Below are positions 560 through 56,381 of a stretch of 64,000 nt of DNA, one piece after another. How positions within the stretch are numbered: the first letter of the stretch is position 1; each line of letters starts with the position of its first letter. The notes under the pieces were generated by a model. The model was not told the origin of the DNA. It saw nothing but the letters and a program-made list of their open reading frames with translations, and did not search any database. The translations under genes were made by a program, and so were the position numbers. This stretch comes from Candidatus Omnitrophota bacterium (GTDB lineage Bacteria; Omnitrophota; Gorgyraeia; Gygaellales; Profunditerraquicolaceae): NCBI GenBank assembly GCA_026387335.1, contig JAPLLX010000002.1, positions 13,326 through 77,325 of the forward strand. The letters are read 5' to 3'.

Positions 560-1036
560 ATGAAAAATAATTATGCCTTTATTGATAGCCAAAATTTGAA
601 TCTTGCTATACGGGAACAAGATTGGCAACTTGATTTTAAGAGATTTAGAAAATATTTAGAGGATAAATACGATGTTACCAAGGCATTTCTTTTTATAGGT
701 TATATTGCCACAAACGCAAGTTTATATACATCATTGCAAGAGGACGGTTATATTCTGATTTTTAAACCAACATTATCTTTACCTGATGGCAGAGTAAAGG
801 GAAATATTGACGCAGAGTTAGTGCTTCATGCAATGATAGAATACCCGAATTACGATAAGGCGCTGGTAGTTACCGGGGACGGCGATTTCCACTGCCTTAT
901 TGATTACCTGAAAAGACAAGATAAATTAGCCAAGTTAGTTATTCCAAATCAATATAAATTTTCTTCACTTCTGAGGAAGTTCGGCCAGTATATGGTTTTT
1001 ATGAATGGCTTAAAGGAAAAGTTGAAGTATAAATAA
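560..1036 (+). CDS. NYN-domain (LabA/PIN-like) protein
   Basis: N-terminal AFIDSQNL and a GDGDF acidic motif are typical of NYN/LabA-like nucleases (PF01936). AAATAATT precedes the ATG. The gene is distinctly AT-rich relative to its flanks. A GAGAGG...CCTCTC hairpin lies downstream at about 1040-1080. Confidence 0.6.
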   Translation: MKNNYAFIDSQNLNLAIREQDWQLDFKRFRKYLEDKYDVTKAFLFIGYIATNASLYTSLQEDGYILIFKPTLSLPDGRVKGNIDAELVLHAMIEYPNYDKALVVTGDGDFHCLIDYLKRQDKLAKLVIPNQYKFSSLLRKFGQYMVFMNGLKEKLKYK

Positions 1037-1110
1037 AAAGAGAGGCATTGCCGCGGGACGAACCCTTTGGCTAACCTCTCATCGTGATTCAATAAAAGTA
1101 TATAATATTA

Positions 1111-1983
1111 ATGCCTATCTGTCAAGCAAAAAGGGGTATGAGATACGAGCAAAATAGAACTCGTCATTACGAGGAGCGTTACATTTCGTCATTGCTTTAC
1201 TCACTACGCTCGTTCGCAATGACTGGTTTTCTCATTTCACTGGCTGCTTTAGCCCAAGCTGAGGTAACTGCTTCTTATTGGCAGACCAGCAAATCCCAGC
1301 ATTTTATAATTTATTATCAGGAAGCCCCCGCCGGATTTGTTGACGAGCTTATTAATAAAGCCGAAAACTATTATAACGGCATTGTTGATGAATTAGGCTA
1401 CCGGAGGATGGATTTCTGGAGCTGGGATAACCGCGCCAAAATCTATCTTTATAAAAATGCCGATGATTTTCATACCGATACCCAGCGTTCTGCCTGGGCA
1501 GGAGCGGTAGTCTCGGTGCGTAACCGAATAATGAAAACTTTTGTCGGGCAAGAACATTTTTTTGACTCATTGCTACCACATGAGATGACGCACATTATAT
1601 TCCGGGAGTTTATCGGAGTAAATACTCCGTTGCCTCTTTGGATTGACGAAGGTGTAGCCAGTTCTCAAGAGAAAAGTAACCTTTACGCGCGTATGCAGAT
1701 AGCTAAGGACCTGGTCGCCAAAAACCAGTATATTAAACTGGATAAGTTTTCGGAAATAAGCAAGCCCGGAGAGGATACTGTCGCGCCGGATATTTTTTAT
1801 TCAGAGGCGGCGTCCCTGATTGTTTTCCTTATCCGGGACAAAGGAAGAGAACGCTTCCTGGATTTTAGCCGCTCCTTACGCGATGGGATAGATTGGAAGA
1901 GCGCCTTATTAAAGACTTATAATTTTTTGACTCTGGAAGAATTGGAGAAGGAGTGGAAAAATTATATGCTAAAAAATAAATAG
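1111..1983 (+). CDS. Secreted MA-clan zinc metallopeptidase-like protein (HExxH...E)
   Basis: HEMTH (HExxH) followed by IDEGVA (a downstream Glu), the gluzincin pattern. A signal-peptide-like segment MTGFLISLAALAQA suggests the true start may be the ATG at 1219 (or 1138). The stop TAG is the first triplet of REPIN copy 1. Confidence 0.45.
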   Translation: MPICQAKRGMRYEQNRTRHYEERYISSLLYSLRSFAMTGFLISLAALAQAEVTASYWQTSKSQHFIIYYQEAPAGFVDELINKAENYYNGIVDELGYRRMDFWSWDNRAKIYLYKNADDFHTDTQRSAWAGAVVSVRNRIMKTFVGQEHFFDSLLPHEMTHIIFREFIGVNTPLPLWIDEGVASSQEKSNLYARMQIAKDLVAKNQYIKLDKFSEISKPGEDTVAPDIFYSEAASLIVFLIRDKGRERFLDFSRSLRDGIDWKSALLKTYNFLTLEELEKEWKNYMLKNK

Positions 1984-2046
1984 GGACAGCGACCGTTTTT
2001 TCTGGTCGCTTCGCTTAAGAGAAAAATGGTCGCTGTCCCTATTTAT
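1979..2046. repeat. REPIN copy 1: 64-68 bp perfect palindrome AATAGGGACAGCGACC(A/G)TTTTT...AAAAATGGTCGCTGTCCCTATTTA
   Basis: Arms of 22-24 bp, reverse-complementary, read directly from the sequence. It flanks the RAYT gene on the left. Confidence 0.9.
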
Positions 2047-2124
2047 GTTCTTTGATAAAATATCTTAGTTAGATTCCCTTATTTCTGGCGTCTATTAATA
2101 GTAGAGGAAAGGAGGGAAACTAAC

Positions 2125-2832
2125 ATGCCTAGAATTGCCAGAGTTGTAGCGATAGGTCAGCCTCACCATATTACGCAAAGAGGTAATTACCAGCAAGAGG
2201 TGTTTCTTAGCGCGGATAACCGAAAACAATACCTTGCCTGGATTAATGAATATAGCGTAAAATACGGGGTTTCTATTTTGGCCTATTGCTTAATGCTAAA
2301 CCATGTTCATTTTATCGCTGTTCCTTATGAAAACGACTCGTTGGCTAAAACATTTAACACCGCCCATATGCGTTATGCCCAGTATCTTAATAAAAAATTG
2401 AAGCAGCGCGGGCATCTTTGGCAGGGACGTTTTTATTCCTGTGTATTGGATCAATCTCATCTTATACTTGCCGCTCGTTATATTGAAAGGAATCCTGCGC
2501 GCGCCGGTATTGTAGATAAACCTTGGCAGTGGTTATGGTCAAGCGCCGCCTTACATACGGGCAGGGAGAATGACGGGTTGATTAAATTAGGGGATCTTTT
2601 CAGAATTATAGATATGTCAAGCGTCTCGTGGGAGAAATACATTGATTCCGCGGAAGAGGACAATTTTTTACAGAATATAAGAAAGCATACATACGCCGGT
2701 CGTCCCCTCGGGGCGCCGGAATTTACTACAGATTTAGAGGAAAAATGCGGTAGAAGGCTATGCGCGCTGCCGATAGGAAGACCAAGAGTATTAAATAGGG
2801 ACAGCGACCGTTTTTCTGGTCGCTTCACTTAA
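2125..2832 (+). CDS. rayT: REP-associated tyrosine transposase (RAYT; COG1943 IS200-like HuH-Y1 transposase)
   Basis: HuH motif LNHVHFI. GHLWQGRFYS and RYIERNPARAGIV (catalytic Tyr-x3-NP) plus the WSSAAL tail match my memory of the COG1943/Y1_Tnp consensus. Strong RBS AGGAAAGGAGGG precedes the ATG. The ORF 3' end reads into REPIN copy 2 (tail ...LNRDSDRFSGRFT is the REPIN translated), so the native C-terminus is uncertain. Confidence 0.8.
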   Translation: MPRIARVVAIGQPHHITQRGNYQQEVFLSADNRKQYLAWINEYSVKYGVSILAYCLMLNHVHFIAVPYENDSLAKTFNTAHMRYAQYLNKKLKQRGHLWQGRFYSCVLDQSHLILAARYIERNPARAGIVDKPWQWLWSSAALHTGRENDGLIKLGDLFRIIDMSSVSWEKYIDSAEEDNFLQNIRKHTYAGRPLGAPEFTTDLEEKCGRRLCALPIGRPRVLNRDSDRFSGRFT

Positions 2833-2859
2833 GAAAAAAATGGTCGCTGTCCCTATTTA
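2794..2859. repeat. REPIN copy 2 (right flank of RAYT)
   Basis: Same palindrome as copy 1; loop variant CTGGTCGCTTCACTTAAG. Confidence 0.9.
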
Positions 2860-2872
2860 ATTATAAGGAGGA

Positions 2873-3754
2873 TTGATGCCGCAGGAGATAAACATCCTGG
2901 TTTTTGAAGATGATCTGACCGCAGCCGGCCTGTTGGAGTCTGCCCTTAAATCCGCGGGTTACCGCGTCTGGATGGCAACAACCGCGCGCGAAGCGCTGGA
3001 TTTATTGCGGGCTAACACCTTTCCGGTAGCAATCGCTGAGCTGCGTTCTTCCAAAATGAACGGCATTCAGTTCACTCAGGAAGTGCACAAGATATCTCAG
3101 GGCACGAATGTATTGGTTATCACGCTTTATTCTTTTATCAATTCCGCGATTGAGGCCATGGAAGCCGGAGCCTACGGTTATATTACCAAGCCTTTGAACA
3201 GTTCAGAGATACGTATTGTGGTTGAGCGGGCGGCAGAAAGGTTTTTCCTTCTTTCGACCAGCGATGAAAAGGACTATTTTGTGGATTTAGCTGTGCGCGA
3301 CGGGCTCACTGGGCTTTTTAACCGCCGCTATTTCAATGAGTTAATTAATATTGAAATTAACCGGATAAAACGCTCGCCGGCCACGCTTTCCTTACTAATG
3401 CTTGACATTGACAATTTTAAAAATTATAATGATACTCAAGGCCATCCGGCGGGAGACGAGTTGCTTAAAAAAGCCGCCAAGGTCTTTAAAAATTCCGTGC
3501 GGGCGGTGGATATGGTCTGCCGCTACGGCGGGGAGGAATTTATTGTAATGCTCCCGCAGACGGCCAAGGCCGTAGCCCAGATAATCGCCGAGCGGCTGCG
3601 CGTGCAAACCGGGCTTTATTTGCCGACGACGGTCAGCATTGGTATCGCCACGCTTCCGGAAGACGCGCAAAGCGCGGAGGATTTGATTCAGAAAGCGGAC
3701 GACGCCCTTTATCAAGCCAAAAAGAGCGGCAAGAATAAATGGTGCGCGGCTTAA
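2873..3754 (+). CDS. Response-regulator receiver + GGDEF diguanylate cyclase (PleD-like). The receiver has Glu at the phospho-acceptor position
   Basis: REC: acidic pair VFEDD, conserved T (VITLY) and K (YITKP), but the Asp position reads PVAIAELRS (Glu). GGDEF domain: intact GGEEF with an RxxD I-site (RAVD) five residues upstream. Confidence 0.85.
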   Translation: MMPQEINILVFEDDLTAAGLLESALKSAGYRVWMATTAREALDLLRANTFPVAIAELRSSKMNGIQFTQEVHKISQGTNVLVITLYSFINSAIEAMEAGAYGYITKPLNSSEIRIVVERAAERFFLLSTSDEKDYFVDLAVRDGLTGLFNRRYFNELINIEINRIKRSPATLSLLMLDIDNFKNYNDTQGHPAGDELLKKAAKVFKNSVRAVDMVCRYGGEEFIVMLPQTAKAVAQIIAERLRVQTGLYLPTTVSIGIATLPEDAQSAEDLIQKADDALYQAKKSGKNKWCAA

Positions 3755-3757
3755 AAT

Positions 3758-4003
3758 ATGCGCCTGGCGATACTTGATCCTAAAAAGGCAATTTGGCAGG
3801 GGATGGCCAAGAAGGTGACTTTGCCGGCGGCCGACGGAGAAATGTGCGTACTGGATTTTCATCAGCCTTTTGTAGTCAGGCTGGCCAAAGGCAAGATAAC
3901 TTTTTCCGGTGAGAACCTTCCGGCTCGGCAGCCGGGTATTCCTATAAAAGACGGTATCGCTTTTATGCGCTCAAATTCTTTGACTGTTTTCGCCCAGACT
4001 TAA
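3758..4003 (+). CDS. atpC: F-type ATP synthase epsilon subunit (N-terminal beta-sandwich only; C-terminal helical hairpin absent)
   Basis: LAILDPKKAIWQGMAKKVTLPAADGEMCVLDFHQPFVVRLAKGKITF matches the epsilon N-domain pattern (V..V..P...GE.GIL..H.P....L..G.I). 81 aa. Confidence 0.5.
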   Translation: MRLAILDPKKAIWQGMAKKVTLPAADGEMCVLDFHQPFVVRLAKGKITFSGENLPARQPGIPIKDGIAFMRSNSLTVFAQT

Positions 4004-4010
4004 ATAATAT

Positions 4011-4223
4011 ATGTCCACATTCGCCTTAATTCTAGTTATGATTTTAAGCACTGCCGGCCCGGCCGCGGTCATTGCCCTGGTGGGTTTTTCCGCGGTCAAG
4101 TCCATAGCGCGTAATCCTTCCGCCTCCCCCAAAATATTCATAGTCATGATCTTGGCTTTTATTTTTTCAGAAGCGATCGCGATTTTGGCGCTTCTGATTT
4201 TATATAATCTTTTTACCAAGTAG
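4011..4223 (+). CDS. atpE: F-type ATP synthase c subunit (proteolipid)
   Basis: Two-helix hairpin, 70 aa, polar loop ARNPSAS, and a carboxylate in helix 2 (FSEAIAILAL). Confidence 0.6.
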   Translation: MSTFALILVMILSTAGPAAVIALVGFSAVKSIARNPSASPKIFIVMILAFIFSEAIAILALLILYNLFTK

Positions 4224-4230
4224 AGGAATA

Positions 4231-4294
4231 AATAGGGACAGCGACCATTTTTCCCTGGTCGCCTAGACAGAAAAATGGTCGCTGTCCCTATTTA
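4231..4294. repeat. REPIN copy 3
   Basis: AATAGGGACAGCGACCATTTTTCCCTGGTCGCCTAGACAGAAAAATGGTCGCTGTCCCTATTTA. Sits between atpE and the b-delta gene inside the ATP synthase operon. Confidence 0.9.
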
Positions 4295-4302
4295 AAAACA
4301 CT

Positions 4303-5016
4303 ATGCTCGTCCAGCTTTTAGCCATCCAGATAGTCACTTTCATAGCCATTATATTTTTATTGCGTTTTCTTTTCTCGCGCCATCTTAAGGTCGCCTTGGA
4401 TAGGCTGAATACCTTGCATGAAGAAAACCTGGCCAAAGAAGAAGAGCTGAATGAGGAGTTGAAAAGGGCCAAAGAAGAGAGTCAGGCGGAAATAGAAAAA
4501 GGCAAAGAAGAGGCCGAGGTCATTATTGAAGACTCTAAAAAAGAAGCCACGCGGATACGCTTAACCCTTGAAGAAGAGGCCAAGGCCCAAGCGGCCAAGA
4601 TCGTCGCTATGGGTAAAGTTGATGCCGAGAAAATGAAGGAGAGTGTGTCCAGGGATATACAAGGCCAGAGCGTGGAATTGGCCTCCAGAATGATCTCCGA
4701 GCTGCTTATTGAAGCGGATAAAGTTGCCCTGCAATACCAGTTTGCCAATGAGATAATCGCAGAGATTGCCCGCCTGCCCAAAGAGCAGTTTAACGTCCAG
4801 GCCAAAGACATAAAAGTCACCTCCAGTTATCCTTTGCTGGACAGGCAAAGAGACGAGTTACAAAAGGTTTTAGGCGAAAAATTAGAGGGGGCCTTTAAGA
4901 TCAAAGAGCAGATAGACCCCAAGCTTATCGGAGGGCTCATCCTGGATATAGGCGGTATGGTTATTGACGGGACCTTAAAGAACAAGCTGCAAAGAATCAT
5001 TCCTTACCTTAAATGA
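4303..5016 (+). CDS. atpFH: ATP synthase b-delta fusion protein
   Basis: N-terminal TM helix plus a long charged coiled coil (b-like). The C-terminus IDPKLIGGLILDIGGMVIDGTLKNKLQRI matches the conserved delta/OSCP C-terminal motif (IDPSLIGG..I.IGD.VIDGS....L). 237 aa. Confidence 0.55.
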   Translation: MLVQLLAIQIVTFIAIIFLLRFLFSRHLKVALDRLNTLHEENLAKEEELNEELKRAKEESQAEIEKGKEEAEVIIEDSKKEATRIRLTLEEEAKAQAAKIVAMGKVDAEKMKESVSRDIQGQSVELASRMISELLIEADKVALQYQFANEIIAEIARLPKEQFNVQAKDIKVTSSYPLLDRQRDELQKVLGEKLEGAFKIKEQIDPKLIGGLILDIGGMVIDGTLKNKLQRIIPYLK

Positions 5017-5030
5017 CACAAAAATAAAAT

Positions 5031-6491
5031 ATGAAAGTTGGCGCGTTAGACATAAGGGAAGTCGGCAGAATAGAAGAGCTTAAGCAGGGGATTGTGAAGA
5101 TCAGCGGCCTGCCGAATTGTTCTTACGGGGAAGTCATTGAGCTGGAAAACGGGCTCAAGGGGATGATCATTGAATTTAACCCGGAATACGCCTTTGGCGT
5201 TGTTTTCGGCGATGAGCGTAAAATCAAAGTCGGTGATACAGTCTCCAGCCGCGGCGGCCTGCTGAATGTCCCGGTGGGAGACGGGTTTATCGGCCGGGTG
5301 GTGAATTCTCTGGCCCAACCTATTGACGGAAAAGGCAAGATCGAGGGATCCGAATTCCATCCGGTTTTTCACGAAGCAGCCGGGGTCATGGAGAGGGAGC
5401 CCATAGACCAAACCTTGCACACCGGAATAAAAATAATTGATATGCTCGTCCCTTTAGGCAAGGGCCAGCGCGAACTTATCGTCGGAGACCGTCAGATAGG
5501 CAAGACCTCCATCGGCCTGGATACGATAATCAACCAGAAAGGCAAAAACGTAATTTGCATATATTGCTGGATAGGCGGAAGTTCCGCCGCCTTTAATAAA
5601 ATAATTCAAACTCTGCGCCAGCACGGGGCAATGGATTATGTCTTAGGAGTTTGCGCTTCGGCCGGCTCAGCCACATCTGAACAATATATCTGCCCTTACA
5701 CCGCCGCCGCGCTGGGCGAATATTTTATGAATAGCGGCAGGGATGTTTTGGTCATATTTGATGACCTGACCAAACACAGCTGGGTCTACCGGCAGATGTC
5801 CCTGCTTCTTGAACGCGCTCCGGGAAGAGAGGCCTATCCCGGCGATATATTCTTCCTGCATTCGCAACTTATGGAACGGGCCGGAAGGCTAAAAAAAGAA
5901 TTTGGCGGCGGCTCAATGACCTTTCTGCCTTTTGCCGAGACGCTGCAGGGGGATATTACCGGTTATATCTGTTCCAATATAGTCTCCATGACCGACGGGC
6001 AGATTTACTTAAATACGGGTTTGTTCCAGGAAGGTTTTAAGCCGGCCATAGACCTGGAGCTCTCGGTTTCGCGTATTGGAAGCAAGGTGCAGTGCCCGGC
6101 AATCCGGGCTTTAAGCGCGGGCCTGCGTTATGAATATGTGCGTTTCCGTTCACTCTTGCGGCTTACGCGTTTAAGAACCAAGCTTAGCCCGGAAGCAGCC
6201 GAACAATTGCAGCGGGGCAAGGCCCTGTATGAACTTTTAATCCAGGAGAATAACTCGCCTATTTCTCAGGCCGAAGAGATCGCTGTTTTTTACGCTTTTC
6301 ACCAAAAGATACTGGAGGCCATAGGAATAGAGCAGGTCAGGTATTTTAAAAATAATTTTTTCTCTTATCTATCCAGCCATAACGGCGAACTCGTTGACCA
6401 GCTTAATACAAGAGGGGAACTGAGCGAAGATGTGAAGATGCAGCTGGATAAGGCGATAAAAGAATTTTTCCGCAGCTCTAAGATAGGATAG
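5031..6491 (+). CDS. atpA: ATP synthase alpha subunit (divergent)
   Basis: GRVVNSLAQPIDGKG; Walker A GDRQIGKTS; overall F1-alpha architecture. The nucleotide-binding region is unusually Cys-rich (CIYCWIGGSS). Confidence 0.85.
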   Translation: MKVGALDIREVGRIEELKQGIVKISGLPNCSYGEVIELENGLKGMIIEFNPEYAFGVVFGDERKIKVGDTVSSRGGLLNVPVGDGFIGRVVNSLAQPIDGKGKIEGSEFHPVFHEAAGVMEREPIDQTLHTGIKIIDMLVPLGKGQRELIVGDRQIGKTSIGLDTIINQKGKNVICIYCWIGGSSAAFNKIIQTLRQHGAMDYVLGVCASAGSATSEQYICPYTAAALGEYFMNSGRDVLVIFDDLTKHSWVYRQMSLLLERAPGREAYPGDIFFLHSQLMERAGRLKKEFGGGSMTFLPFAETLQGDITGYICSNIVSMTDGQIYLNTGLFQEGFKPAIDLELSVSRIGSKVQCPAIRALSAGLRYEYVRFRSLLRLTRLRTKLSPEAAEQLQRGKALYELLIQENNSPISQAEEIAVFYAFHQKILEAIGIEQVRYFKNNFFSYLSSHNGELVDQLNTRGELSEDVKMQLDKAIKEFFRSSKIG

Positions 6492-6493
6492 AA

Positions 6494-6875
6494 GATTGCG
6501 TCATTGCGAACCCCGCCTATGGCGGGGTGAAGCAATCTCTGAATATGAGTAATAAAGCAGGTTTTGTTTATCTTATGACAAACAAAATGAATACGGTAAT
6601 TTATACAGGAGTTACAAGCGACCTTCAAAAAAGAATTTATGAACATAAAGAAAAATTAGTTGATGGTTTTACTAAGAAATATAATGTTAATAGATTAGTT
6701 TATTACGAGATATTTGATGGTATAGAAGATGCAATCACAAGGGAAAAACAAATTAAAGCGGGTTCGCGGAAGAAGAAGTTAGATTTAATTAGTTCTATTA
6801 ACCCTGATTTCAAAGACCTTTATTATGAATTATGAGATTGCTTCGGCTGCCTGCAGCAGCCTCGCAATGACGCAA
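6494..6875. mobile_element. Small GIY-YIG cassette bounded by about 45-bp terminal inverted repeats, inserted between atpA and atpG
   Basis: Left end GATTGCGTCATTGCGAACCCCGCCTATGGCGGGGTGAAGCAATCTC (6494-6539). Right end GAGATTGCTTCGGCTGCCTGCAGCAGCCTCGCAATGACGCAA (6834-6875). The TTGCGTCATTGCGA and GAAGCAATCTC blocks are reverse-complementary between the two ends, and each end also carries its own internal palindrome. The interior is AT-rich. Confidence 0.7.
6545..6835 (+). CDS. GIY-YIG domain nuclease (small standalone, YhbQ/UPF0213-like)
   Basis: GFVYLMTN...VIYTGVTSDLQKRIYEH gives the GIY/YIG beta-hairpins plus a conserved Arg and Glu. The ORF track starts at 6527, inside the left TIR; the ATG at 6545 is more plausible. 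Confidence 0.7.
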   Translation: MSNKAGFVYLMTNKMNTVIYTGVTSDLQKRIYEHKEKLVDGFTKKYNVNRLVYYEIFDGIEDAITREKQIKAGSRKKKLDLISSINPDFKDLYYEL

Positions 6876-6886
6876 AGGATAAATAA

Positions 6887-10733
<3,847 letters not shown>

Positions 10734-10735
<2 letters not shown>

Positions 10736-10797
10736 ATAGGGACAGCGACCATTTTTTCCTGGTCGCATAGATAGAAAAATGGTCGCTGTCCCTATTT
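10734..10797. repeat. REPIN copy 4
   Basis: Begins at the pilB stop codon. AATAGGGACAGCGACCATTTTTTCCTGGTCGCATAGATAGAAAAATGGTCGCTGTCCCTATTTA. Confidence 0.9.
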
Positions 10798-10812
10798 ATT
10801 ACGGAGAAATAA

Positions 10813-12051
10813 ATGATATTTTTATACAAAGCCAAAAAGAGTTTAAATGAGATAGTTGAAGGTAGATTAGAAAAGGATAGCGTTGAGCAGGTTATTGAAG
10901 AGCTGCAGTCAAAAGGCCTGGTTCCGGTTTCTGTTGAGCCGCAAGAGATAAAAATCGCCCCAGATTCGCCCGCAGAAGCGACGACCGTCAAGAAGCCGGT
11001 TTTAAGGTTTAGGAGCGGGAAGTGGGGGTTAAAACAGCTGGTCCTCTTTACGCAAAAATTATACAACTTGATAAACTCCCGCGTGGAGTTACTCAGCGCC
11101 CTTAGGCTTTTAGAGAAAAATTGCGAAAACCCGACGGAGAAGGCGCTCTTAGAAGATATCATCAAGAATATTAAGGACGGCATAGCTTTTTCCGGGTGCC
11201 TTAACCGTTATCCGCAGTATTTTCCCCAGCTTTACGTCCACATAATACATACCGGAGAGACCACCGGTAAATTAAAAGAGGCGCTGTCGCAGCTTTTGGA
11301 TTACTTGCGCCGGGTCGAGGATTTAAAGAGTAAAGTCAAACAGGCGCTGGCGTATCCGATATTTATGACCGTCGTCGGTATAGGCACGATCTGCGTTATG
11401 CTGACTTTTGTCCTTCCGCGCCTGGCGAGTATGTTTGACGATTACAATGCCCAGCTCCCGATGCCTACGCTCATTTTACTTAATACCGCGGGGTTCGTTA
11501 AACATTACTGGTTGTTCATCGCGGCATTTTTTATTTTTCTTATTTTTGTCCTCAAGTTTAGCTCTCAAGGGAAAGAAAGCTTCTTCTCGCGGTTAAAATA
11601 CCACATTCCGATAGCCAAAGATATCGTTTATAAGCAGTCAGTGGAAAATTTCTCAAGAAGCATCGCCCTGCTTTTACAAAGCGGAGTTACACTTCTTGCC
11701 GCGCTTAAAGATGCCGCCTTTGTTATCGGTAATCCGGTTTACATTGAACAGCTGGAACAGGTGCGTAAGGATATCAGCGAGGGCGGCACCTTCTCCGGAT
11801 CGCTGGCAAAATTCAAGATATTTCCGGATTTTTTTGTGCAGATGATCCGTGTCGGAGAAGAGGGCGGAAGGCTGGACCAGGTGCTTTTGGATATAGCCGA
11901 TTCCTACGAGAAGGATATCGAAGCTGACCTGAAGGTAGTCAGTTCCCTTATTGAGCCGGCGATAATATTAGTCCTGGGTTTGGTCATCGGAGGCATGGTC
12001 ATTGCCATGCTTTTACCGATATTTAATATGAACAGCCTTTTCGGCAGCTAA
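10813..12051 (+). CDS. pilC: Type II secretion / type IV pilus inner-membrane platform protein (GspF/PilC family)
   Basis: Two T2SSF repeats, three TM helices, characteristic length of 412 aa. Confidence 0.85.
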   Translation: MIFLYKAKKSLNEIVEGRLEKDSVEQVIEELQSKGLVPVSVEPQEIKIAPDSPAEATTVKKPVLRFRSGKWGLKQLVLFTQKLYNLINSRVELLSALRLLEKNCENPTEKALLEDIIKNIKDGIAFSGCLNRYPQYFPQLYVHIIHTGETTGKLKEALSQLLDYLRRVEDLKSKVKQALAYPIFMTVVGIGTICVMLTFVLPRLASMFDDYNAQLPMPTLILLNTAGFVKHYWLFIAAFFIFLIFVLKFSSQGKESFFSRLKYHIPIAKDIVYKQSVENFSRSIALLLQSGVTLLAALKDAAFVIGNPVYIEQLEQVRKDISEGGTFSGSLAKFKIFPDFFVQMIRVGEEGGRLDQVLLDIADSYEKDIEADLKVVSSLIEPAIILVLGLVIGGMVIAMLLPIFNMNSLFGS

Positions 12052-12109
12052 TTAATAGGGACAGCGACCATTTTTTTCTGGCCGTTTAGATAAAAAAAAT
12101 GGTCGCTGT
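12044..12109. repeat. REPIN copy 5 (variant loop CTGGCCG)
   Basis: Overlaps the pilC stop TAA. AATAGGGACAGCGACCATTTTTTTCTGGCCGTTTAGATAAAAAAAATGGTCGCTGTCCCTATTTA. Confidence 0.9.
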
Positions 12110-12121
12110 CCCTATTTAAAT

Positions 12122-13495
12122 ATGAAAACAAAAGTAATAATAGAGCTTTCCGAGCGCTGGCTTAAAGTCACGATTGGCCGCAAGGTTTCTGTTGATCCTA
12201 TATTGAACACAGACCCGGCGACAATAGCCGCGTTATTAACTTCAGTTTTTAAGCAGAGTAAATGCGGCAAGGATCTGGAAGTCTTTGTGGTTTTAAGCCG
12301 CAACAAAATAACCGTGCGCCGCGTCGACCTGCCTTCGCAAGACCCCAAAGAAATCGAGCAGATGCTTGGGCTCTATCTTATCCGTCAGATCCCGTATCAT
12401 AAAGAAGAGGTTTTCTGGGCCTATCAGAATTTGGGTTTTGACGGGATAAGCAACAGCCATATACTCTTGGCTATAGCCCTAAAGAATATGTTCAGGAACA
12501 TCGTGACTTCGTTTGGGCCGCTGAATCTGTTACCTGAATCTATATTGATGAGCTCTCAAGGGTTGATCCATTATGTTTCCGACGCGCTTAAAGATAAGAG
12601 CGTTTTACAGGGGCCGTATTTAATACTGGATATAGATACTAATTACAGCGAGCTGATCCTGGTCAACAAGCAAAAATTAAATTCCAGCGTAGTCCTGGCC
12701 CAGGGCGCCGAGCAATTGAAAGATGAGCGGGAAAAAGACAGGTTTATTGTTGAGCTTAAGCAGGGTTTGGTGGCCTTTAATAGCGAGGTCCCCGACGTAA
12801 AAGCGGAGAGACTCTTTTTAAGCGGAGCCTCAGAAGCTCAGCTGGTTATTGTGGAAGCAGCTTTAGCCAGGGACTTTAATATAAAGGCGCAATATGTCTC
12901 GACAAAGGATTATGATAGTTTTAACCCGGGTCAGCCCAAAGAGCTTTCGCTTTCAGCAGCGCTGGGTTTTAGCTCCCAGGTAGCCAGAGACGATATAAAG
13001 TTCATCCTTCCGGAGTTACAGATAAAGAAGGAGATGCAGGCCAAGGCCCGCCAGCTTATGGTTTTAGGGGTATGCCTGGTTTACATATTTATTATGTTCT
13101 GCGCGATCGGCCTGGTAAGGATGGCCCAGAAACAATCTTATTCCGCCAACCTTAAGGCTAAAGTAAAGAGCCTGGCTAAGGATACGCAGGAGCTGGAGGA
13201 TATAACCAATAAGCTTAAGGTGGCCAAACAATATGTAAACCCCAAGGCTTCTGTCCTTACGTTGCTTTATGAACTTTCTCGCTTTTGCCCCGAGGGTATA
13301 ACCATCACAAATTTCAACTGGGAATTGGGAAAGACTTTTTCTTTCCGGGGCTACGCGCAACAAATTCCGGATATATTGGCATTCACCAATACTTTGAGCA
13401 ATTCCGAATATTTTAAAGGCGCGCAAAACCGTTATACCCGCAGGCGTACCGTCAAAGACAGGGAGATGGTTGATTTTGAAATCGTAATTAAATAG
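12122..13495 (+). CDS. PilM-like (actin/FtsA-like) domain fused to a PilN-like transmembrane plus periplasmic segment
   Basis: About 300-aa N-terminal cytoplasmic domain, then a single TM helix LMVLGVCLVYIFIMFCAIGLV, then about 130 aa more. The position directly after pilC fits pilM/pilN. Family assignment is by architecture, not strong motifs. Confidence 0.45.
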   Translation: MKTKVIIELSERWLKVTIGRKVSVDPILNTDPATIAALLTSVFKQSKCGKDLEVFVVLSRNKITVRRVDLPSQDPKEIEQMLGLYLIRQIPYHKEEVFWAYQNLGFDGISNSHILLAIALKNMFRNIVTSFGPLNLLPESILMSSQGLIHYVSDALKDKSVLQGPYLILDIDTNYSELILVNKQKLNSSVVLAQGAEQLKDEREKDRFIVELKQGLVAFNSEVPDVKAERLFLSGASEAQLVIVEAALARDFNIKAQYVSTKDYDSFNPGQPKELSLSAALGFSSQVARDDIKFILPELQIKKEMQAKARQLMVLGVCLVYIFIMFCAIGLVRMAQKQSYSANLKAKVKSLAKDTQELEDITNKLKVAKQYVNPKASVLTLLYELSRFCPEGITITNFNWELGKTFSFRGYAQQIPDILAFTNTLSNSEYFKGAQNRYTRRRTVKDREMVDFEIVIK

Positions 13496-13555
13496 GGACA
13501 GCGACCATTTTTCTGGTCGCTCAGCTAAGAGAAAAACGGTCGCTGTCCCTATTTA
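13492..13555. repeat. REPIN copy 6
   Basis: Its first triplet TAG is the stop of the PilMN ORF. Loop variant with AAAAACGG. Confidence 0.9.
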
Positions 13556-13562
13556 AAATAGA

Positions 13563-14093
13563 ATGATGAAATTAAATAATAAAGAGAAGACTTTAGCAAC
13601 ATTAGTAGGTTTGGTCCTGGCTATTTTTTTGCTCAAGGCCTTTGTCTTCGGTCCGATATTTGAGAAGATTACGACTTATAACCAGGAGATTGAACAATCT
13701 AAGATGGCCATACGTAAATTTATGGCCCTTGAGCATAACCGCAGCGAAATTCTTAAAGCCCAGAAGCAGATAGAAGGATATTCCAGCCTTAAAGGCTCTG
13801 ACGAAGACAAAACTGCCATGGTTATGAGCAAGGTTGAGGCTGAGGCCCGCAAAGCCAAATTGCAGGTATCGGATATGAGCCCGGGCGGATCCAGTAAAAC
13901 AAAAGGGGGGGCGGTTATTTATAGCATACAGCTGCGCGCAGAGGGGAAATTAGATGATATATTGAATTTTCTATCCGGAATTGAAAAAGCCAGCACTCTT
14001 TTGCAGGTAGCTAAGCTGACGTTATCCAATAAGGATGAAATCAGCGATGTGCTTAAACTGGAAGTAATTGTTTTGGGAGTGTCATTTTCCTAG
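13563..14093 (+). CDS. PilO/GspM-like bitopic membrane protein
   Basis: N-terminal TM helix, coiled-coil region, position in the pilus cluster. Confidence 0.35.
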   Translation: MMKLNNKEKTLATLVGLVLAIFLLKAFVFGPIFEKITTYNQEIEQSKMAIRKFMALEHNRSEILKAQKQIEGYSSLKGSDEDKTAMVMSKVEAEARKAKLQVSDMSPGGSSKTKGGAVIYSIQLRAEGKLDDILNFLSGIEKASTLLQVAKLTLSNKDEISDVLKLEVIVLGVSFS

Positions 14094-14104
14094 AGGAGGT
14101 TATT

Positions 14105-14500
14105 ATGAGAAAAGGTTTTACTTTAATCGAACTGATGCTTGTAGTTATTATTATCGGCGTTTTGTCGGCGATGGTCGTGCCGCGGCTGGCCGGACGCTCA
14201 GAGCAGGCCAGGATACAGGCGGCAAAAACAGATATTAACTCCAGTATTCCCCTGGCGCTTGACCTCTATGAGATGGATATGGGAAACTTTCCGGAAAGCC
14301 TGGACTATTTAAGGACGCGGCCCGGAACCGGAGATAGCTGGCGCGGGCCATATCTAAAAAAGAAACCGCTGGATCCCTGGGGTAAAGCTTATATTTATAA
14401 AGCTCCGGGCGAGCATAACCAGGACGGCTATGACCTTTATTCCATGGGGCCAGACGGCCAGGCGGGTACAAGCGACGATATCGTAAACTGGGGTGAATAG
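14105..14500 (+). CDS. gspG: Type II secretion major pseudopilin GspG (prepilin N-terminus)
   Basis: MRKGFTLIELM (G|F cleavage site with Glu at +5). DPWGKAYIYKAPGEHNQDGYDLYSMGPDGQAGTSDDIVNW is the hallmark GspG/PulG C-terminal calcium-loop region. RBS AGAGGAGG. Confidence 0.8.
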   Translation: MRKGFTLIELMLVVIIIGVLSAMVVPRLAGRSEQARIQAAKTDINSSIPLALDLYEMDMGNFPESLDYLRTRPGTGDSWRGPYLKKKPLDPWGKAYIYKAPGEHNQDGYDLYSMGPDGQAGTSDDIVNWGE

Positions 14501-14909
14501 GCTTAAAGGTTTTACTCTGATTGAAGTGATGATAAGCGTGCTTATTCTGGGCACAGGCTTGGCGGTTGTCGCCAATTCTTACCTCTCCGCGGTCAGAGGT
14601 ATAAATAGCGCCCAGAATAATATTCAGGCGACGCTTTTGGCAAAAGAAAAATTTGACGAGTTGGAGCTGTCCAGTTTAATGAAAAAAGGATTGACCGCGT
14701 TTTCTGCCAACGATACCCTAAAATCTTCAGGCAAAACTTACAAATACGACCTGAGTATTACAGAAATAGCCGAACCAGAATATATTTCTGAATACCTGGT
14801 TAAAACCTGCCTTACGCTAAGCTGGCAGGAAAAGAACGTCACCAAAAATGCCACTCTTTCCACTTATTTTCCTAAATATAAAGAAGAGAAAGCCAGCAAG
14901 AGCCTTTAG
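14493..14909 (+). CDS. Minor pseudopilin (GspI/J-like)
   Basis: Prepilin leader and hydrophobic helix MNRLKGFTLIEVMISVLILG; 4-nt overlap with gspG. Confidence 0.55.
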   Translation: MNRLKGFTLIEVMISVLILGTGLAVVANSYLSAVRGINSAQNNIQATLLAKEKFDELELSSLMKKGLTAFSANDTLKSSGKTYKYDLSITEIAEPEYISEYLVKTCLTLSWQEKNVTKNATLSTYFPKYKEEKASKSL

Positions 14910-15450
14910 CCTTGTTGAGCTACTCATCGCGGTCTCCATATTCGCCGTAGTCAGTATCGCTGTTTATTCCACTTTTAGTTCAGGTTTAGACGTATTACGC
15001 AAGGTTAAGAATATTGACTTGGCCCAGCAGATGTTCCTGCTTAAGCAGGAAAGATTTGCTAAGGATTTAAGGCAGACAGTTTTATTACGTAAACCCTTAT
15101 TCTTAGGTTTAAAAGACAAGGTAAGCTTCGGAGCCATTGTTAACGATTGGCCCTGTCGCCTGACTTACGCGTTTGATAATTCTACTCAAAGCCTGACGCG
15201 CAATACCGATAAACTAAGCGATATACTCACCAGCGAAGGAAAGATTGAAGTTGAGTCCAAGTCCAAACCAACGGTTTTCATCCCCAAAGTAAAAAAAGCG
15301 GAATTTTCATATCTCTACCTGGATTTAAAGAAAAATGTTTACAGCTGGACTGAAGAATGGAAAGAGAAATTTCTGCCTCTGGCGGTAAAACTAAACATTT
15401 CAATCGGAAACCAAGATTATGCCACGACTGTATTTTTGCCCACAGCGTAA
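14848..15450 (+). CDS. Minor pseudopilin (GspH/J-like)
   Basis: KKRKPARAFSLVELLIAVSIFAVV is a prepilin-like N-terminal helix with Glu at +5. The true start is ambiguous and overlaps the previous gene. Confidence 0.45.
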   Translation: MPLFPLIFLNIKKRKPARAFSLVELLIAVSIFAVVSIAVYSTFSSGLDVLRKVKNIDLAQQMFLLKQERFAKDLRQTVLLRKPLFLGLKDKVSFGAIVNDWPCRLTYAFDNSTQSLTRNTDKLSDILTSEGKIEVESKSKPTVFIPKVKKAEFSYLYLDLKKNVYSWTEEWKEKFLPLAVKLNISIGNQDYATTVFLPTA

Positions 15451-46692: not shown

Positions 46693-47532
46693 ATGAAAAC
46701 TTTTATACTTTTGTTTCAGTGCAGGGACCAAAAAGGGATTGTCGCTAAACTGGCGGATTTTATTTTTAAGGCCGGCGGTAATATCATTAACGCTGACCAG
46801 TATTCTACGGACCCGGCAGGCGGATATTTCTTTATCAGAGTAGAGTTTCTAATTAACGCGCCATCAGGGAAAGCTGCCCTAGAGAAGGGTTTAAGCGTTA
46901 TCGCTAAGAGCTTACAGGCGAAGTTTTCGCTCTATGATAAGGAAAAACCGCTGCGTATGGGCATATGCGTTTCTAGCCCCGGGCATTGCCTGGCGGAGAT
47001 ATTATATTTATGGAGAGAGCGGGAGTTAAACGTAGATACACCTTTGGTCATCTCTAACTTTGAGGGGCACCGGGAATTCGCCAGGCAGTATAAGGTCCCG
47101 TTTTATTTTATTCCGGCGACTAAGAATAGCCGCAGGGAAGGAGAATTATTAAAGATAGTTTCTCGAGACACTGATTTTTTGGTGCTCGCCCGCTATATGC
47201 TTGTGCTATCTAAGAAATTCCTTAACGCTTATGGCAAAGACATTATAAATATTCATCACGGGTTTCTGCCTTCGTTTAAAGGGAGTAATCCTTATGGGCA
47301 GGCGCTTAATCAAGGCGTTAAGGTGATCGGCGCGACCAGTCATTTTGTGGCTGAAAAACTGGATACTGGCCCGATTATTACCCAGGAAGTAGAATACGTC
47401 TCGCATAAAGATGCCTTAAAGGATTTGGTGCGTAAGGGTAAGAATTTAGAGAAGAGGGCATTAGTTGAGGCTATCCGCGCCTATATTGACTACCGCGTCA
47501 TTAAACACAATAATAAAACCATAGTCTTTTAA
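46693..47532 (+). CDS. purU: Formyltetrahydrofolate deformylase
   Basis: N-terminal ACT domain (ILLFQCRDQKGIVAKLADFI), then the formyltransferase core (INIHHGFLPSFKG; HxxxD region). Confidence 0.85.
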   Translation: MKTFILLFQCRDQKGIVAKLADFIFKAGGNIINADQYSTDPAGGYFFIRVEFLINAPSGKAALEKGLSVIAKSLQAKFSLYDKEKPLRMGICVSSPGHCLAEILYLWRERELNVDTPLVISNFEGHREFARQYKVPFYFIPATKNSRREGELLKIVSRDTDFLVLARYMLVLSKKFLNAYGKDIINIHHGFLPSFKGSNPYGQALNQGVKVIGATSHFVAEKLDTGPIITQEVEYVSHKDALKDLVRKGKNLEKRALVEAIRAYIDYRVIKHNNKTIVF

Positions 47533-47594
47533 TAGGGACAGCGACCATTTTTCTTGGTCGCAGAGAAGAGAAAAATGGTCGCTGTCCCTATTTA
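47531..47594. repeat. REPIN copy 7
   Basis: Overlaps the purU stop TAA. Identical to copy 8, including the loop CTTGGTCGCAGAGAAGAG. Confidence 0.9.
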
Positions 47595-48677: not shown

Positions 48678-49328
48678 ATGAGCGAACATAAGCCTAAATC
48701 TATCCAGAATATTGAAGAAAAAATGGAATCACTGGATACAAATTCATTGCGTTATCATATACTGGAGAGCGCTAAGAATTTTAAAATCTCCTGGATCGAA
48801 CTTGGGCGTTCACTTTACTCGGTATGGAAAGATAAATTATATAAGGATTGGGGTTTTAGCACGTTTGATATATATACCGCTAAAGAGATTGGAATAAGGA
48901 AACCTACGGCTATGAAGCTTCTGCGTTCGTATTATTTTCTGGAGAAAGAAGAACCGGCATATTTAAAAAATGACTATACCGAAGCAGCCAAGGTCCCCAG
49001 TTATGAGGCAGTGGATCTGTTGCGTAAGGCAAAAGATAAGAAAAACCTGGATGCGCAGGATTATTCTAAACTAAAAAAAGAAATTTTTGAGGATGGCAAA
49101 GATATCCAATCGGTAAAGCGGGATTTAACTTCTTTAATCCGGCAAAGGGAAGAGCTGGAGCCGCAAGAGGCGTATAAGAGAAGAAGGGTAGCGACCTTAA
49201 GAAGATTTATCGGCAGCTTAAAAGCGTTAAAACAGGAGGCAGAGATATCCAAATTGCTTCCCATGGCGCTTATTAAGGACGCTGGGGAGCTGATAAAGAA
49301 GATAGAAGAGCAAATTGAGAATAAATAG
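48678..49328 (+). CDS. Hypothetical protein
   Basis: ORF only; the stop TAG lies inside REPIN copy 8. Confidence 0.3.
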   Translation: MSEHKPKSIQNIEEKMESLDTNSLRYHILESAKNFKISWIELGRSLYSVWKDKLYKDWGFSTFDIYTAKEIGIRKPTAMKLLRSYYFLEKEEPAYLKNDYTEAAKVPSYEAVDLLRKAKDKKNLDAQDYSKLKKEIFEDGKDIQSVKRDLTSLIRQREELEPQEAYKRRRVATLRRFIGSLKALKQEAEISKLLPMALIKDAGELIKKIEEQIENK

Positions 49329-49387
49329 GGACAGCGACCATTTTTCTTGGTCGCAGAGAAGAGAAAAATGGTCGCTGTCCCTATTTA
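49324..49387. repeat. REPIN copy 8
   Basis: Identical to copy 7. Confidence 0.9.
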
Positions 49388-49394: not shown

Positions 49395-51104
49395 ATGAAT
49401 ATAATTAAAATACTGGAAGAGAGAGCGCTGAATACCCCGGATAAACCCGCGGTATTTTTTAGGGAGCAGGTTATTTCATTCTTTAAGCTTAAGGATGTAT
49501 CTGCTCGTCTCGCCGGAGCTTTGAAGAAATTAGGCGTGAATAAGGGCGATAAAATAGCGCTATACCTGCCGAGTTGGCCGGAGTATATTTTTAGTTACTT
49601 GAGCATCTGGCGCCTGGGTGCTGTAGCCGTGCCTTTAGATTTTATGCTCACCGAAGATGAGCTGGTGGCCTGCCTTACGCATTCCGCAGCCAAAATTTTA
49701 ATTGCCAAATCTAAGGCCAACCTCTCTTTGGATGCACTTAAGAAAAGATGTCCGGGGTTAAAGCAGATAATCACCTGTCAGGATAAAGCCGAGGGGTTTT
49801 TATTTTTTGATGAATGCGTGGAAAAAAGCGAAGCGCAAGGTATGAACGCGGATGTGCAGGATAAAGATTACGCGATTATTTTTTATACCTCCGGGACCAC
49901 CGGAAAACCCAAAGGGGTGTTAATAAATTATCTGCAATTAAGCGCTCCTCCAAAATCTATGGAGTTTTTTGTCAATTCGGATTTAAGCGCTAAAGATACG
50001 ACTTTATGCGCCCTACCTTTTTCGCATCTGGGAGGGTTGATTTATATCCAGAACACAGTTGTTTTTGGCCTGAAGCTGGTTTTAATGGAGCGTTTTATCC
50101 CTTCGGAATTTTTAAAGAACATCCAAAACTATAAAGTTAACTTTTTCTGGCTCGTTCCTTCCATGTATTACGCGCTCTTACAATTAAAAGAATTTGAAAC
50201 ATTTGATTTGAGTTCTTTGCGTTGGATAGTTACTTTCGGCGCTTCTAATTCCGCGGATGCCCTGCGCAGATTCCATCAGTTCTGCCCTAAGGCGCATCTT
50301 TTAAACGGTTGGGGCCTGACCGAGACCAACGCGCCCAGCGTAGTCTTGGCTATGGGCTCAAAAAAAATAGAAAGCGTGGGCAGGCCTGCTCCGTGGATAG
50401 AGGTAAAGGTATTTGACGATACGGATAAAGAAGTTAAAACAGGCCAAGTCGGAGAGATTGTGGTTAAAAGTTGGGTAGTTACCGACGGGTATTATAAGGA
50501 TACCGCCCTGACCAAAGAAACTTTTAAGAACGGATGGTTTCATACAGGAGATTTGGGTAAATTTGACCCTGAAGGCGACCTCTATATCGTCGGCAGGAAA
50601 AAAGAGATGATCAAAGTGGGCGGAGAGATTGTTTTTGAGCCGGAGGTAGAGTCGGTAATTTACCGGCATCCGGATGTTGCCGAAGCAGCGGTTGTCGGCG
50701 TTACGGATAAATTAAGGGGAGAGTTGCCTAAGGCCTGGGTGGTTTTAAAAGATGGCAAGGCATTAAGCGAAGAAGACCTGCGTTATTTTTGCCGGGAGCA
50801 CCTGGCGCATTTTAAGATCCCGCATTATTTTGAATTTGTGAAGTCGCTTCCCAAAAATCGTACCGGAAAAATTGACAAAGAGCAACTCAGGGACGGTTCT
50901 CAAGCCAATCTTAAAGTGTCCCCTTTATGGGGACACTTTTGCTTTGAGTTGAGAACCGTCCCTAACTGTCTATGGAAGATATCACGAAGTTGTCCCTTGA
51001 GGAACTGGAAGATAAACTTAAAGGTAGTGGCGCTAAAGGCTATCATGCCGGCCAGATTTTCTCCTGGATTTATAATAAAGCAACCCTGGATTTCGCTGAA
51101 ATGA
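49395..51104 (+). CDS. AMP-dependent synthetase/ligase (acyl-CoA synthetase family). The 3' end reads through a palindromic element
   Basis: AMP-binding motif IFYTSGTTGKPKGV; C-terminal NRTGKIDKEQLR conserved-Lys motif at about 50860-50890. The frame then continues without a stop through element B copy 1 to 51104, overlapping rlmN. Confidence 0.8.
   Translation: MNIIKILEERALNTPDKPAVFFREQVISFFKLKDVSARLAGALKKLGVNKGDKIALYLPSWPEYIFSYLSIWRLGAVAVPLDFMLTEDELVACLTHSAAKILIAKSKANLSLDALKKRCPGLKQIITCQDKAEGFLFFDECVEKSEAQGMNADVQDKDYAIIFYTSGTTGKPKGVLINYLQLSAPPKSMEFFVNSDLSAKDTTLCALPFSHLGGLIYIQNTVVFGLKLVLMERFIPSEFLKNIQNYKVNFFWLVPSMYYALLQLKEFETFDLSSLRWIVTFGASNSADALRRFHQFCPKAHLLNGWGLTETNAPSVVLAMGSKKIESVGRPAPWIEVKVFDDTDKEVKTGQVGEIVVKSWVVTDGYYKDTALTKETFKNGWFHTGDLGKFDPEGDLYIVGRKKEMIKVGGEIVFEPEVESVIYRHPDVAEAAVVGVTDKLRGELPKAWVVLKDGKALSEEDLRYFCREHLAHFKIPHYFEFVKSLPKNRTGKIDKEQLRDGSQANLKVSPLWGHFCFELRTVPNCLWKISRSCPLRNWKINLKVVALKAIMPARFSPGFIIKQPWISLK
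50889..50964. repeat. Palindromic element family B copy 1 (nested inverted repeats AGGGACGGTTCTCAA...TTGAGAACCGTCCCT around AAGTGTCCCC...GGGGACACTT)
   Basis: Read directly; 91% identical to 56249-56327. Confidence 0.85.
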
Positions 51105-56248: not shown

Positions 56249-56327
56249 GTTAGGGACGGTTCTCAAGCTAATCTTAAAGTGTCCCCATTAAGGGGACACT
56301 TTAGCTTTGAGTTGAGAACCGTCCCTA
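56249..56327. repeat. Palindromic element family B copy 2
   Basis: Immediately after the leuS stop: TTAGGGACGGTTCTCAAGCTAATCTTAAAGTGTCCCCATTAAGGGGACACTTTAGCTTTGAGTTGAGAACCGTCCCTAA. Confidence 0.85.
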
Positions 56328-56381
56328 ATATTTAGTTAGATTTTGTTTCCTGCCACGTCTATTAGAGCAGGAGGTGGGAAG

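Follow-up and report, generated by a model that had tools for sequence, protein, structure and literature searches.

What places a family of strong hairpins on the stop codons of bacterial operons, where they take up most of the space between one gene and the next? The question is raised by a 64,000-nt stretch of DNA from a Candidatus Omnitrophota bacterium (GenBank assembly GCA_026387335.1, contig JAPLLX010000002.1, positions 13,326 to 77,325 of the forward strand; hereafter, the window), in which eight hairpin repeats of 60–63 nt each were detected by inverted-repeat search and arm matching. A first-pass annotation of this DNA had named them REPINs (doublets of repetitive extragenic palindromic (REP) sequences that form hairpins) and had attributed their positions either to insertion at a dedicated target site or to co-option as punctuation within operons. 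We lean, if only slightly, toward another explanation, namely, that these are non-autonomous mobile hairpins whose location at stop codons is accounted for by filtering at tight gene junctions and by stop codons that the elements themselves carry.

Each copy consists of a left arm, ATAGGGACAGCGACC(A/G)TTTTT, a loop of 14–20 nt, and a complementary right arm. The arm motif ATAGGGACAGCGACC has 16 exact matches in the window, compared with 0.97 expected from shuffled sequences, and in the inverted-repeat search, the complementarity reaches 3–5 nt past ATAGGG, typically giving TAAATAGGG...CCCTATTTA. The stems are perfect over 25–28 bp, and the predicted RNA folds of the eight copies range from -38 to -47 kcal/mol, with z-scores from -7 to -12. 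Polarity is identical in all eight copies, with TGGTCGC always opening the loop beside the left arm; an extra inner GGTCGC that is able to pair with the left arm was found only in the copies of this genome. The GC skew of the window is positive, the plus strand carries nearly all genes, and the copies are on the G-rich strand, which is probably the leading strand. The left flank reads WTAA or WTTA in 8/8 copies; in six of these, the left TAA pairs with a right TTA, that is, the flanks are inverted and not direct repeats, and complementarity continues for one or two further bases in a copy-specific manner (AATAA/TTATT, ATTAA/TTAAT). Because this pairing and the copy-specific complementarity extend the palindrome, the TAA appears to be borne by the element and not to represent a conserved target. 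The identical short direct repeat that would be expected at every copy of a transposase-less miniature inverted-repeat transposable element with a fixed target duplication was not found, the flanks being inverted in these six copies. The arm, GGGACAGCGACC, is not self-complementary and has an ATAG head, in contrast to the standard REP unit, an imperfect palindrome headed by GTAG or GT(A/G)G. No Rfam family matches the repeats (the search of the window returned two tRNAs only), and a literature search turned up no paper for the arm GGGACAGCGACC or on repeats of Omnitrophota. The repeats are REPIN-like dimers of a terminal inverted repeat, that is, REPINs in the broad sense, and their non-palindromic arm and ATAG head fit the description of the TIRtron/TIRYT systems better than that of classical REPs.

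The window also encodes a candidate for the enzyme that moves them, a RAYT-type (REP-associated tyrosine transposase) protein of the Y1 (HUH) class, the sole gene of its kind in the window, with copies 1 and 2 on either side. The protein matches Pfam Y1_Tnp (1.2e-13), and its best NCBIfam family is REP_Tyr_transpos (NF047646, REP-associated tyrosine transposase), with 64.5 bits, under the curated cut-off of 80. The IS200 model scores 17.1 bits against a cut-off of 55, and the ends of the unit are inverted repeats, both of which speak against membership in IS200/IS605. A profile built from this protein and seven homologues has E. coli TnpA-REP (4ER8) as its best structural match (E 9e-6), with IS200/IS605 TnpA structures at E ~0.01; a direct search of the PDB with the single protein yielded no match, such that the profile was required. 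Residues H60, H62, and Y119 are invariant across the eight homologues. The open reading frame (ORF) of the transposase runs 38 nt into copy 2, so that the protein ends in ...GRPRVLNRDSDRFSGRFT instead of the usual ...GRPKKK. With inverted doublets and a cognate RAYT-type transposase in the same window, the name REPIN is borne out in the sense of REPIN-like elements. The hairpins are probably mobilized by this very transposase.

The same arm is found far beyond this genome. A scan with the query ATAGGGACAGCGACCNTTTT, including one genome per species, detected the 20-nt arm ATAGGGACAGCGACC(A/G)TTTT (in the window, for example, 10736-10755) exactly at no fewer than 118 loci (L001-L118), of which ~4 could be due to chance (an estimate for 19 fixed bases in 596 Gb). 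The matches listed span about ten phyla, including Omnitrophota, Planctomycetota (among them anammox genera), Nitrospirota, Desulfobacterota, Clostridia, WOR-3, Desantisbacteria, Aerophobetes, Ratteibacteria, and others. Among these listed matches, the transposases beside the 20-nt arm are only 42–64% identical, and the loops are unrelated. In homologues with 51–64% identity, the arm is located upstream of the gene, directly before a TTGACA-like box, and at four loci (L020, L024, L073, and L016), it is found also in inverted orientation, 0–4 nt after the stop codon of the transposase (...GRPKKK); in L022, the arm is confined to the 5' side. Given that homologues carry the same arm at the ends of the unit, the elements in the window can be described as dimers of the terminal repeat of a transposase unit. 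Transposase homologues with ~30% identity were found on 29 plasmids. A phage vehicle was considered and dismissed, as the arm has no match in viral contigs and there is a single weak protein hit in phage records. In other Omnitrophota, a stop codon lies within -8 to +1 of the arm in 19 of 72 arms (26%), compared with 4% of random non-coding positions; in the other phyla, the figure is only 9 of 111 arms (8%).

All eight copies in the window are located within 8 nt of the end of the upstream gene (Table 1). Such positions make up ~18% of the window's non-coding DNA (~1.8 kb in total), and the chance of this placement would be roughly 1e-6 (a rough estimate) if it were uniform. The six stop codons that had been listed in the first-pass annotation are all at the positions given there, and its statement that in six of the eight copies the stop is inside the element or is its first triplet holds for five that are inside or flush; the sixth, the pilC TAA at 12049, is adjacent only, 3 nt before ATAGGG and 2 nt before the folded stem. 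The TAG codons at 1981, 13493, and 49326 are bases 2–4 of ATAGGG, and the extended palindrome TAAATAGGG opens with the pilB TAA at 10733. As for the two further stops, the atpE TAG precedes copy 3 at a distance of 8 nt, and the stop of the transposase ORF lies within the loop of copy 2 (2830-2832). The distance from the element to the next ATG had been given as 5–15 nt; it is 19, 11, 17, 6, 10, 16, and 10 nt in seven copies (6–19 nt) and 82 nt in copy 1. The repeats indeed take up the spacers of three pil junctions in a row, as well as that of atpE|atpFH; Pfam confirmed peptidase MA, PilB, PilC, the PilM/N fusion, the PilO-like protein, ATP synthase c subunit, the b/delta fusion, and PurU. Also as previously proposed, the predicted N-termini of the ORFs at 47554 and 49347 are translated REPINs; the true starts are ATG 47608, which yields a protein 100% identical over its full length to a public 355-aa protein, and ATG 49395, which is backed by the orthologue in the relative L153.

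Table 1. Hairpin copies, the transposase gene, and repeats of other families (coordinates are positions in the window)
Feature	Coordinates	Strand	Junction and neighboring signals
Copy 1	1980..2042	+	peptidase gene / transposase gene; peptidase TAG 1981-1983 is element bases 2-4; fold -42.1 kcal/mol, z -8.9
Transposase gene, RAYT-type Y1 (HUH), 235 aa	2125..2832	+	copies 1 and 2 on either side
Copy 2	2795..2856	+	transposase gene / GGDEF response-regulator gene (ATG 2876, AGGAGG 2866-2871)
Copy 3	4232..4291	+	atpE|atpFH; atpE TAG 4221-4223, atpFH ATG 4303
Copy 4	10736..10795	+	pilB|pilC; pilB TAA 10733-10735 flush with element, pilC ATG 10813; nearest kin copy 3
Copy 5	12055..12115	+	pilC|pilMN; pilC TAA 12049-12051, pilMN ATG 12122
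Copy 6	13492..13552	+	pilMN|pilO; pilMN TAG 13493-13495 inside element, pilO ATG 13563
Copy 7	47532..47591	+	purU|DUF748 gene; purU TAA 47530-47532, 1-nt overlap; true downstream ATG 47608
Copy 8	49325..49384	+	216-aa ORF ends at element TAG 49326-49328; AMP-binding gene ATG 49395
Third repeat family (GTCATTGCGAG...CGAAGCAATC, GAGATTGCTTCG...CTCGCAATGAC)	6495-6875		flanks small GIY-YIG gene ~6546-6835 between atpA and atpG
Family B copy (AGGGACGGTTCTCAAGCC...)	50889..50963		end of AMP-binding gene; shares AGGGAC end
Family B second copy	56250..56328		starts 5 nt after TAA (56242-56244) of 799-aa gene

Strong stems directly after coding regions might also suggest intrinsic terminators or attenuators inside the operons, and partial terminators had been put forward in the first-pass annotation. 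We consider this very improbable. The stem is followed by UUA and mixed bases, with no U-tract, and the loops are 14–20 nt long; a terminator scan of positions 1-15000 reported none of the eight copies, and Rfam has no match to them; the genes downstream encode parts of essential complexes (ATP synthase, pilus) and have no promoter-like spacer of their own.

Relatives in which the same junctions can be compared were found by a metagenome scan with PilC, which yielded 27 pil-operon loci (L119-L145, five distant PilC homologues left out). A sister strain, represented by L119/L120 (within the 511-kb contig of L151) and L152, shares ~97.7% identity with the window across 21 kb, and its comparison spans the window up to position 20847; copies 7 and 8 were compared with L153, a 76% relative, instead. 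The distant relatives comprise 25 loci, with 54–91% protein identity. At pilB|pilC, the sister strain reads GAG TAA TAA ATG and lacks copy 4, and this junction is empty in L119/L120/L151/L152 and in 20 other relatives. Copy 6 is likewise absent from the sister strain, where pilMN|pilO is an ATGA overlap, as it is in 13 relatives. The ancestral spacers are 1–3 nt at pilB|pilC and 7–10 nt at pilC|pilMN (18 nt in L121), with the ATGA overlap at pilMN|pilO, and atpE|atpFH is empty (~7 nt) in the distant relative L055. In L153, the junction between purU and the DUF748 gene is a 27-nt spacer without an element, with the stop at the same codon, and the junction between a 215-aa ORF and the AMP-binding gene reads GAA TAA A ATG, the empty site for copy 8. 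Copy 7 is the only one that clearly re-uses an ancestral TAA. Thus, all junctions examined were once tight, and copies 4 and 6 are recent, strain-specific insertions. This comparison of orthologous junctions, which had been suggested as a check on the first-pass annotation, recovered the empty sites.

Between strains, the number of elements follows the presence of the transposase. The strain with the gene at this locus has six copies in 21 kb and the sister strain two, and where the window has REPIN-transposase-REPIN (1980-2856), the sister strain has one solo REPIN (L151 3444-3511), consistent with recombination between the flanking copies; the peptidase gene of the sister strain likewise stops at the TAG of the element at the copy 1 site. 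The locus itself is old, given that the distant relative L055 retains a transposase remnant (residues 65–168) at the syntenic position (2513-3041). Fresh copies are nearly identical to copies nearby: copies 7 and 8 are the same, copy 4 is 3 nt apart from copy 3, and copy 6 is 1 nt apart from the atpE|atpFH copy of the sister strain. The latter (in L151) is another variant at the site of copy 3, different at 11/61 positions, with identical flanks.

Hairpins unrelated to those described so far (family A) occupy the same kind of position. Family B, with two copies in the window (Table 1), has only the AGGGAC / GTCCCT ends in common with family A, and a copy of it (L119 7255-7339) is located in the pilC|pilMN spacer of the sister strain, where the window has copy 5. 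The family B insertion at 50889 removed the stop codon of the AMP-binding gene, whose ORF runs through the element and ~70 codons further, into the rlmN region, to 51104; at this junction, L153 reads AAG TAG CCCTCCT ATG. Since this copy destroyed a stop, insertion at stops does not depend on supplying one. The sister strain carries solo copies of the third family at eps|atpE and atpFH|atpA (L151 4653-4736, 5738-5824, 7686-7736), where the window has none, and the family is found also at pilB|pilC of L140/L141/L144; these copies sit right after stop codons. A literature search for the repeat sequence of this family, family C, returned unrelated papers only. In L124 (2795-3724), the pilC|pilMN spacer contains a 927-nt insert that carries a GIY-YIG-like ORF along with numerous CAATGACGGG-type repeats and has GGTCGCTGTCCCC as its terminal arm; the insert appears to consist of nested mobile elements. 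Altogether, 19 insertions at pil/atp junctions across strains come from four or more unrelated families, among them the GTCATTGCGAG/GAGATTGCTTCG family; 17 of the 19 have a stem beginning between -3 and +7 nt relative to the stop codon, and in the 17 insertions with a strong stem, the stem ends 5–14 nt before the next start. A layout that is independent of the family points to a common constraint, that is, intact ORFs and an accessible initiation region, and not to a family-specific target.

Two side observations pertain to other parts of the window. Both long contigs of the sister strain end near window position 34400 (by coordinate arithmetic), and the region ~34100-35150, with a 288-nt spacer and an ORF for a 195-aa membrane protein (34396-34983) that has long non-coding stretches on both sides, may be a strain-variable segment. 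The two tRNA genes returned by Rfam are divergent, at 52667-52749 (-) and 52817-52889 (+), with 53.9 and 60.8 bits; the second lies within the listed ORF 52763-53839, which makes the TTG start of that ORF doubtful.

The explanation that we favor combines mobility with three cumulative factors. The transposase would copy the hairpins, probably as single-stranded DNA, the putative substrate being single-stranded TAAATAGGGACAGCGACC hairpins. First, the operon spacers were ancestrally 0–10 nt long, and an insertion that spares both genes would have to land at the stop; because these spacers were so short, an element touches the stop and fills the spacer at once. Second, the palindrome reaches as far as TAAATAG on either strand and thereby has a stop in two frames out of three, such that an insertion in or just before the stop, or in the last codons, would re-terminate the upstream gene immediately. 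Stop usage agrees with this factor: three genes end at the TAG of the element and one at its TAA, and the transposase gene, which is in the open third frame, reads in. Third, the upstream side should tolerate the stem, because a translating ribosome would unwind it, and the downstream gene would need 6–19 unpaired nt before its ATG, so that only those copies would persist that leave this stretch free. A 25–28 bp stem in the operon mRNA would have its own consequences. RNase III cleavage or 3' protection are likely side effects, and a stop inside the stem could hinder termination, probably also as a side effect.

Several observations weigh against this account. The window contains longer spacers (50–290 nt), which the elements avoid, and this could mean a target preference instead of selection. 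The occupancy of pilC|pilMN could mean that the junction is a hotspot or that the hairpin is of benefit there, and the family B copy at 50889 persists even with the stop destroyed. Finally, a clean insertion does not account for all the differences between filled and empty alleles, which show extra bases to the right of the hairpins (TTATTACGGAGAAA and TTAAAATAGA), imperfect duplications at the junctions, and substitutions: between the window and the sister strain, there are five substitutions no more than 5 nt from the two insertion points, compared with ~0.5 expected.

At pilB|pilC, TTATTACGGAGAAA follows the hairpin and GGAGTAA is found, imperfectly, on both sides, the right copy keeping the ribosome-binding site as far from the ATG as before. 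At pilMN|pilO, synonymous changes preserve the protein end EIVIK*, and the TAG of the element serves as the stop in place of TGA. The roughly ten-fold excess of substitutions is at 10726-10735, 13480-13491, and 13553-13562, and the changes on the coding side are all synonymous. Imported alleles were rejected as the source of this divergence, as the excess is limited to ~5 nt. A TA/TTAA target duplication and a 3-nt TWA duplication were rejected as well, given the inverted flanks in six of the eight copies and a predicted pre-insertion sequence that contradicts the empty pilB|pilC site. A clean insert-only model fails too: the least-substitution parse needs 5–8 target bases replaced or an imperfect duplication of 5–7 nt. 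In L126, an 8-nt duplication, TAAAATGA, brackets a related hairpin that sits where an ATGA overlap used to be. Insertion often comes with a short junction duplication that rebuilds the stop and the ribosome-binding site. We know of no target duplication by HUH transposases; either selection picks rare duplicating events, or integration follows a route not described for these enzymes.

The alternative that the placement is mechanistic, with the hairpin integrating beside a short A/T-rich motif similar to its own end (TAAAT / TAA), is in our judgment rather unlikely. Enzymes of the IS200/IS605 type insert next to a motif of four or five nucleotides, on its 3' side. At each of the four empty sites that can be resolved, there is a TAA followed by A/T (GAGTAATAAATG, ATAAAATGATG, TTCTAATTAATAAAT, GAATAAAATG), a motif that stops followed by A-rich spacers would supply; an ancestral TAA adjoins copy 7; the left flank is invariably WTAA or WTTA; the single orientation on the G-rich strand is what a single-strand-specific enzyme predicts; the elements avoid long spacers, which would be improbable under uniform placement; and the family B copy landed on a stop and destroyed it. 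However, the motif is expected by chance, because TAA is the stop codon in 64% of the window's genes without a REPIN and spacers are A/T-rich; hence, nothing can be read from a TAA near an empty site. Three genes terminate at the TAG of the element, one frame off the flanking TAA, and the inverted TAA/TTA flanks look element-borne. The same arm is rarely near stops in other phyla, and unrelated families share the layout. Insertion at a TAA-ATAGGG-like site, as had been proposed, is accordingly not established, with TAA pairing with TTA in six of the eight copies and an ancestral TAA re-used by copy 7 only.

Could the hairpins instead be retained for their effect on the mRNA? Selection for hairpins that cut or stabilize polycistronic mRNA between cistrons, as RNase III sites or by 3' protection, would allow independent expression of PilB, PilC, PilMN, PilO, and the ATP synthase subunits in place of translational coupling. 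The perfect stems of 25–28 bp, with folds of -38 to -47 kcal/mol, have a length that suits RNase III; different families arrived independently at the same junctions, pilC|pilMN being occupied in 8 of 24 lineages and pilB|pilC in 6 of 27; and the hairpin at atpE|atpFH is kept in both strains despite its exchanged interior, including a change from A-T to G-C on both arms. Nevertheless, copies 4 and 6 are absent from a ~97.7% identical strain and from most relatives, in which the junctions are tightly coupled, and because the sister strain and outgroups are empty there, these two copies are not conserved operon punctuation. Occupancy is patchy and positions are not conserved; moreover, the gene extension by ~70 codons and the rewritten C-terminus of the transposase look like collateral damage. 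With hairpins polymorphic between near-identical strains and two insertions that damaged genes, the earlier suggestion of co-opted punctuation fails to gain ground, and we hold it to be quite improbable; effects on mRNA are likely, but as a by-product. Only slightly more credible, and still improbable, is a more general version, in which hairpin repeats have been repeatedly recruited as modular inter-cistron insulators in this Omnitrophota clade, selected for and not just tolerated; it would build on the recurrence of at least four unrelated families between the same pil and ATP synthase stops and starts, with the stem on the stop and 5–14 free bases before the ATG.

Systems of this kind are known from other bacteria. 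The REP/REPIN-RAYT systems of Pseudomonas, Escherichia, and Stenotrophomonas (Nunvar 2010, PMC2817692; Bertels & Rainey 2011, PMC3116915; Di Nocera 2013, PMC3733652) resemble the one in the window in having a Y1/HUH RAYT-type transposase with an inverted flanking repeat, dispersed inverted doublets that fold as hairpins, an extragenic location that is mostly after co-directional genes and near the upstream 3' end, termini that give TAG stops, and new copies near existing ones. They differ in that the head in the window is ATAG and not GTAG, the single arm is not palindromic, the host is a member of Omnitrophota, and the elements are inside operons, at junctions of 0–10 nt and even in a former ATGA overlap. 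The exact 20-nt arm in about ten phyla (among the matches listed) contrasts with classical lineage-specific REPs and is unusual against the picture of lineage-specific, vertically inherited REPIN-RAYT systems. The closest description is that of TIRtrons and TIRYTs (Di Nocera, De Gregorio & Rocco 2013, PMC3733652), in which, as in the window, a tyrosine transposase is flanked by terminal inverted repeats that are not palindromic and are found as dimers, too. Several TIRtron repeats share GGGGWSAS (PMC3733652); compared with this motif only, the window arms (AGGGACAG) match 7/8 positions and the related hairpins of L123 and L126 (GGGGACAG) match 8/8. That study covered a limited set of complete genomes and moderately abundant families, and the window arm, an Omnitrophota host, and the placement at junctions are not described in it (PMC3733652). 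It did report that REP ends supply TAG stops and lie near upstream 3' ends (Di Nocera et al., PMC3733652); because both facts were already published, finding them here would by itself be confirmatory. New are the host phylum, the ATAG-headed non-palindromic arm, the invasion of coupled junctions, the strain-level empty sites, and the conservation of the 20-nt arm.

Two other comparisons concern hairpins within transcription units. Correia elements are 100–150 bp long, with a TA target duplication and no known cognate transposase; in the window, by contrast, the flanks are not a direct repeat of TA or of any other fixed sequence, and a Y1 transposase is present. In E. coli, REPs within ~15 nt of a stop codon reportedly stall terminating ribosomes and trigger tagging by transfer-messenger RNA. 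The window resembles that situation in having a stable stem on or after the stop, and lower output from the upstream gene might plausibly follow as a side effect; the differences are that stops in the window are often inside the stem and that a downstream cistron follows 6–19 nt on. Correia/NEMIS of Neisseria are short inverted-repeat elements in transcription units, the hairpins of which are cut by RNase III, altering the expression of neighboring genes (PMC10969869).

For the annotation of these genomes, the repeats account for N-termini that are spuriously extended, for the excess of TAG stops, and for changed C-termini, as in the transposase and the AMP-binding enzyme. If it is true that insertion itself makes the junction duplication, a Y1-type transposase or a host hairpin pathway would integrate in a way undescribed for HUH enzymes. 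The window and its sister strain amount to a natural before-and-after experiment, with the same junctions empty and filled in genomes 2.3% apart, in which the site choice and repair of REPINs, along with the effects of strong stems on translational coupling and mRNA processing, become testable in an uncultured phylum.

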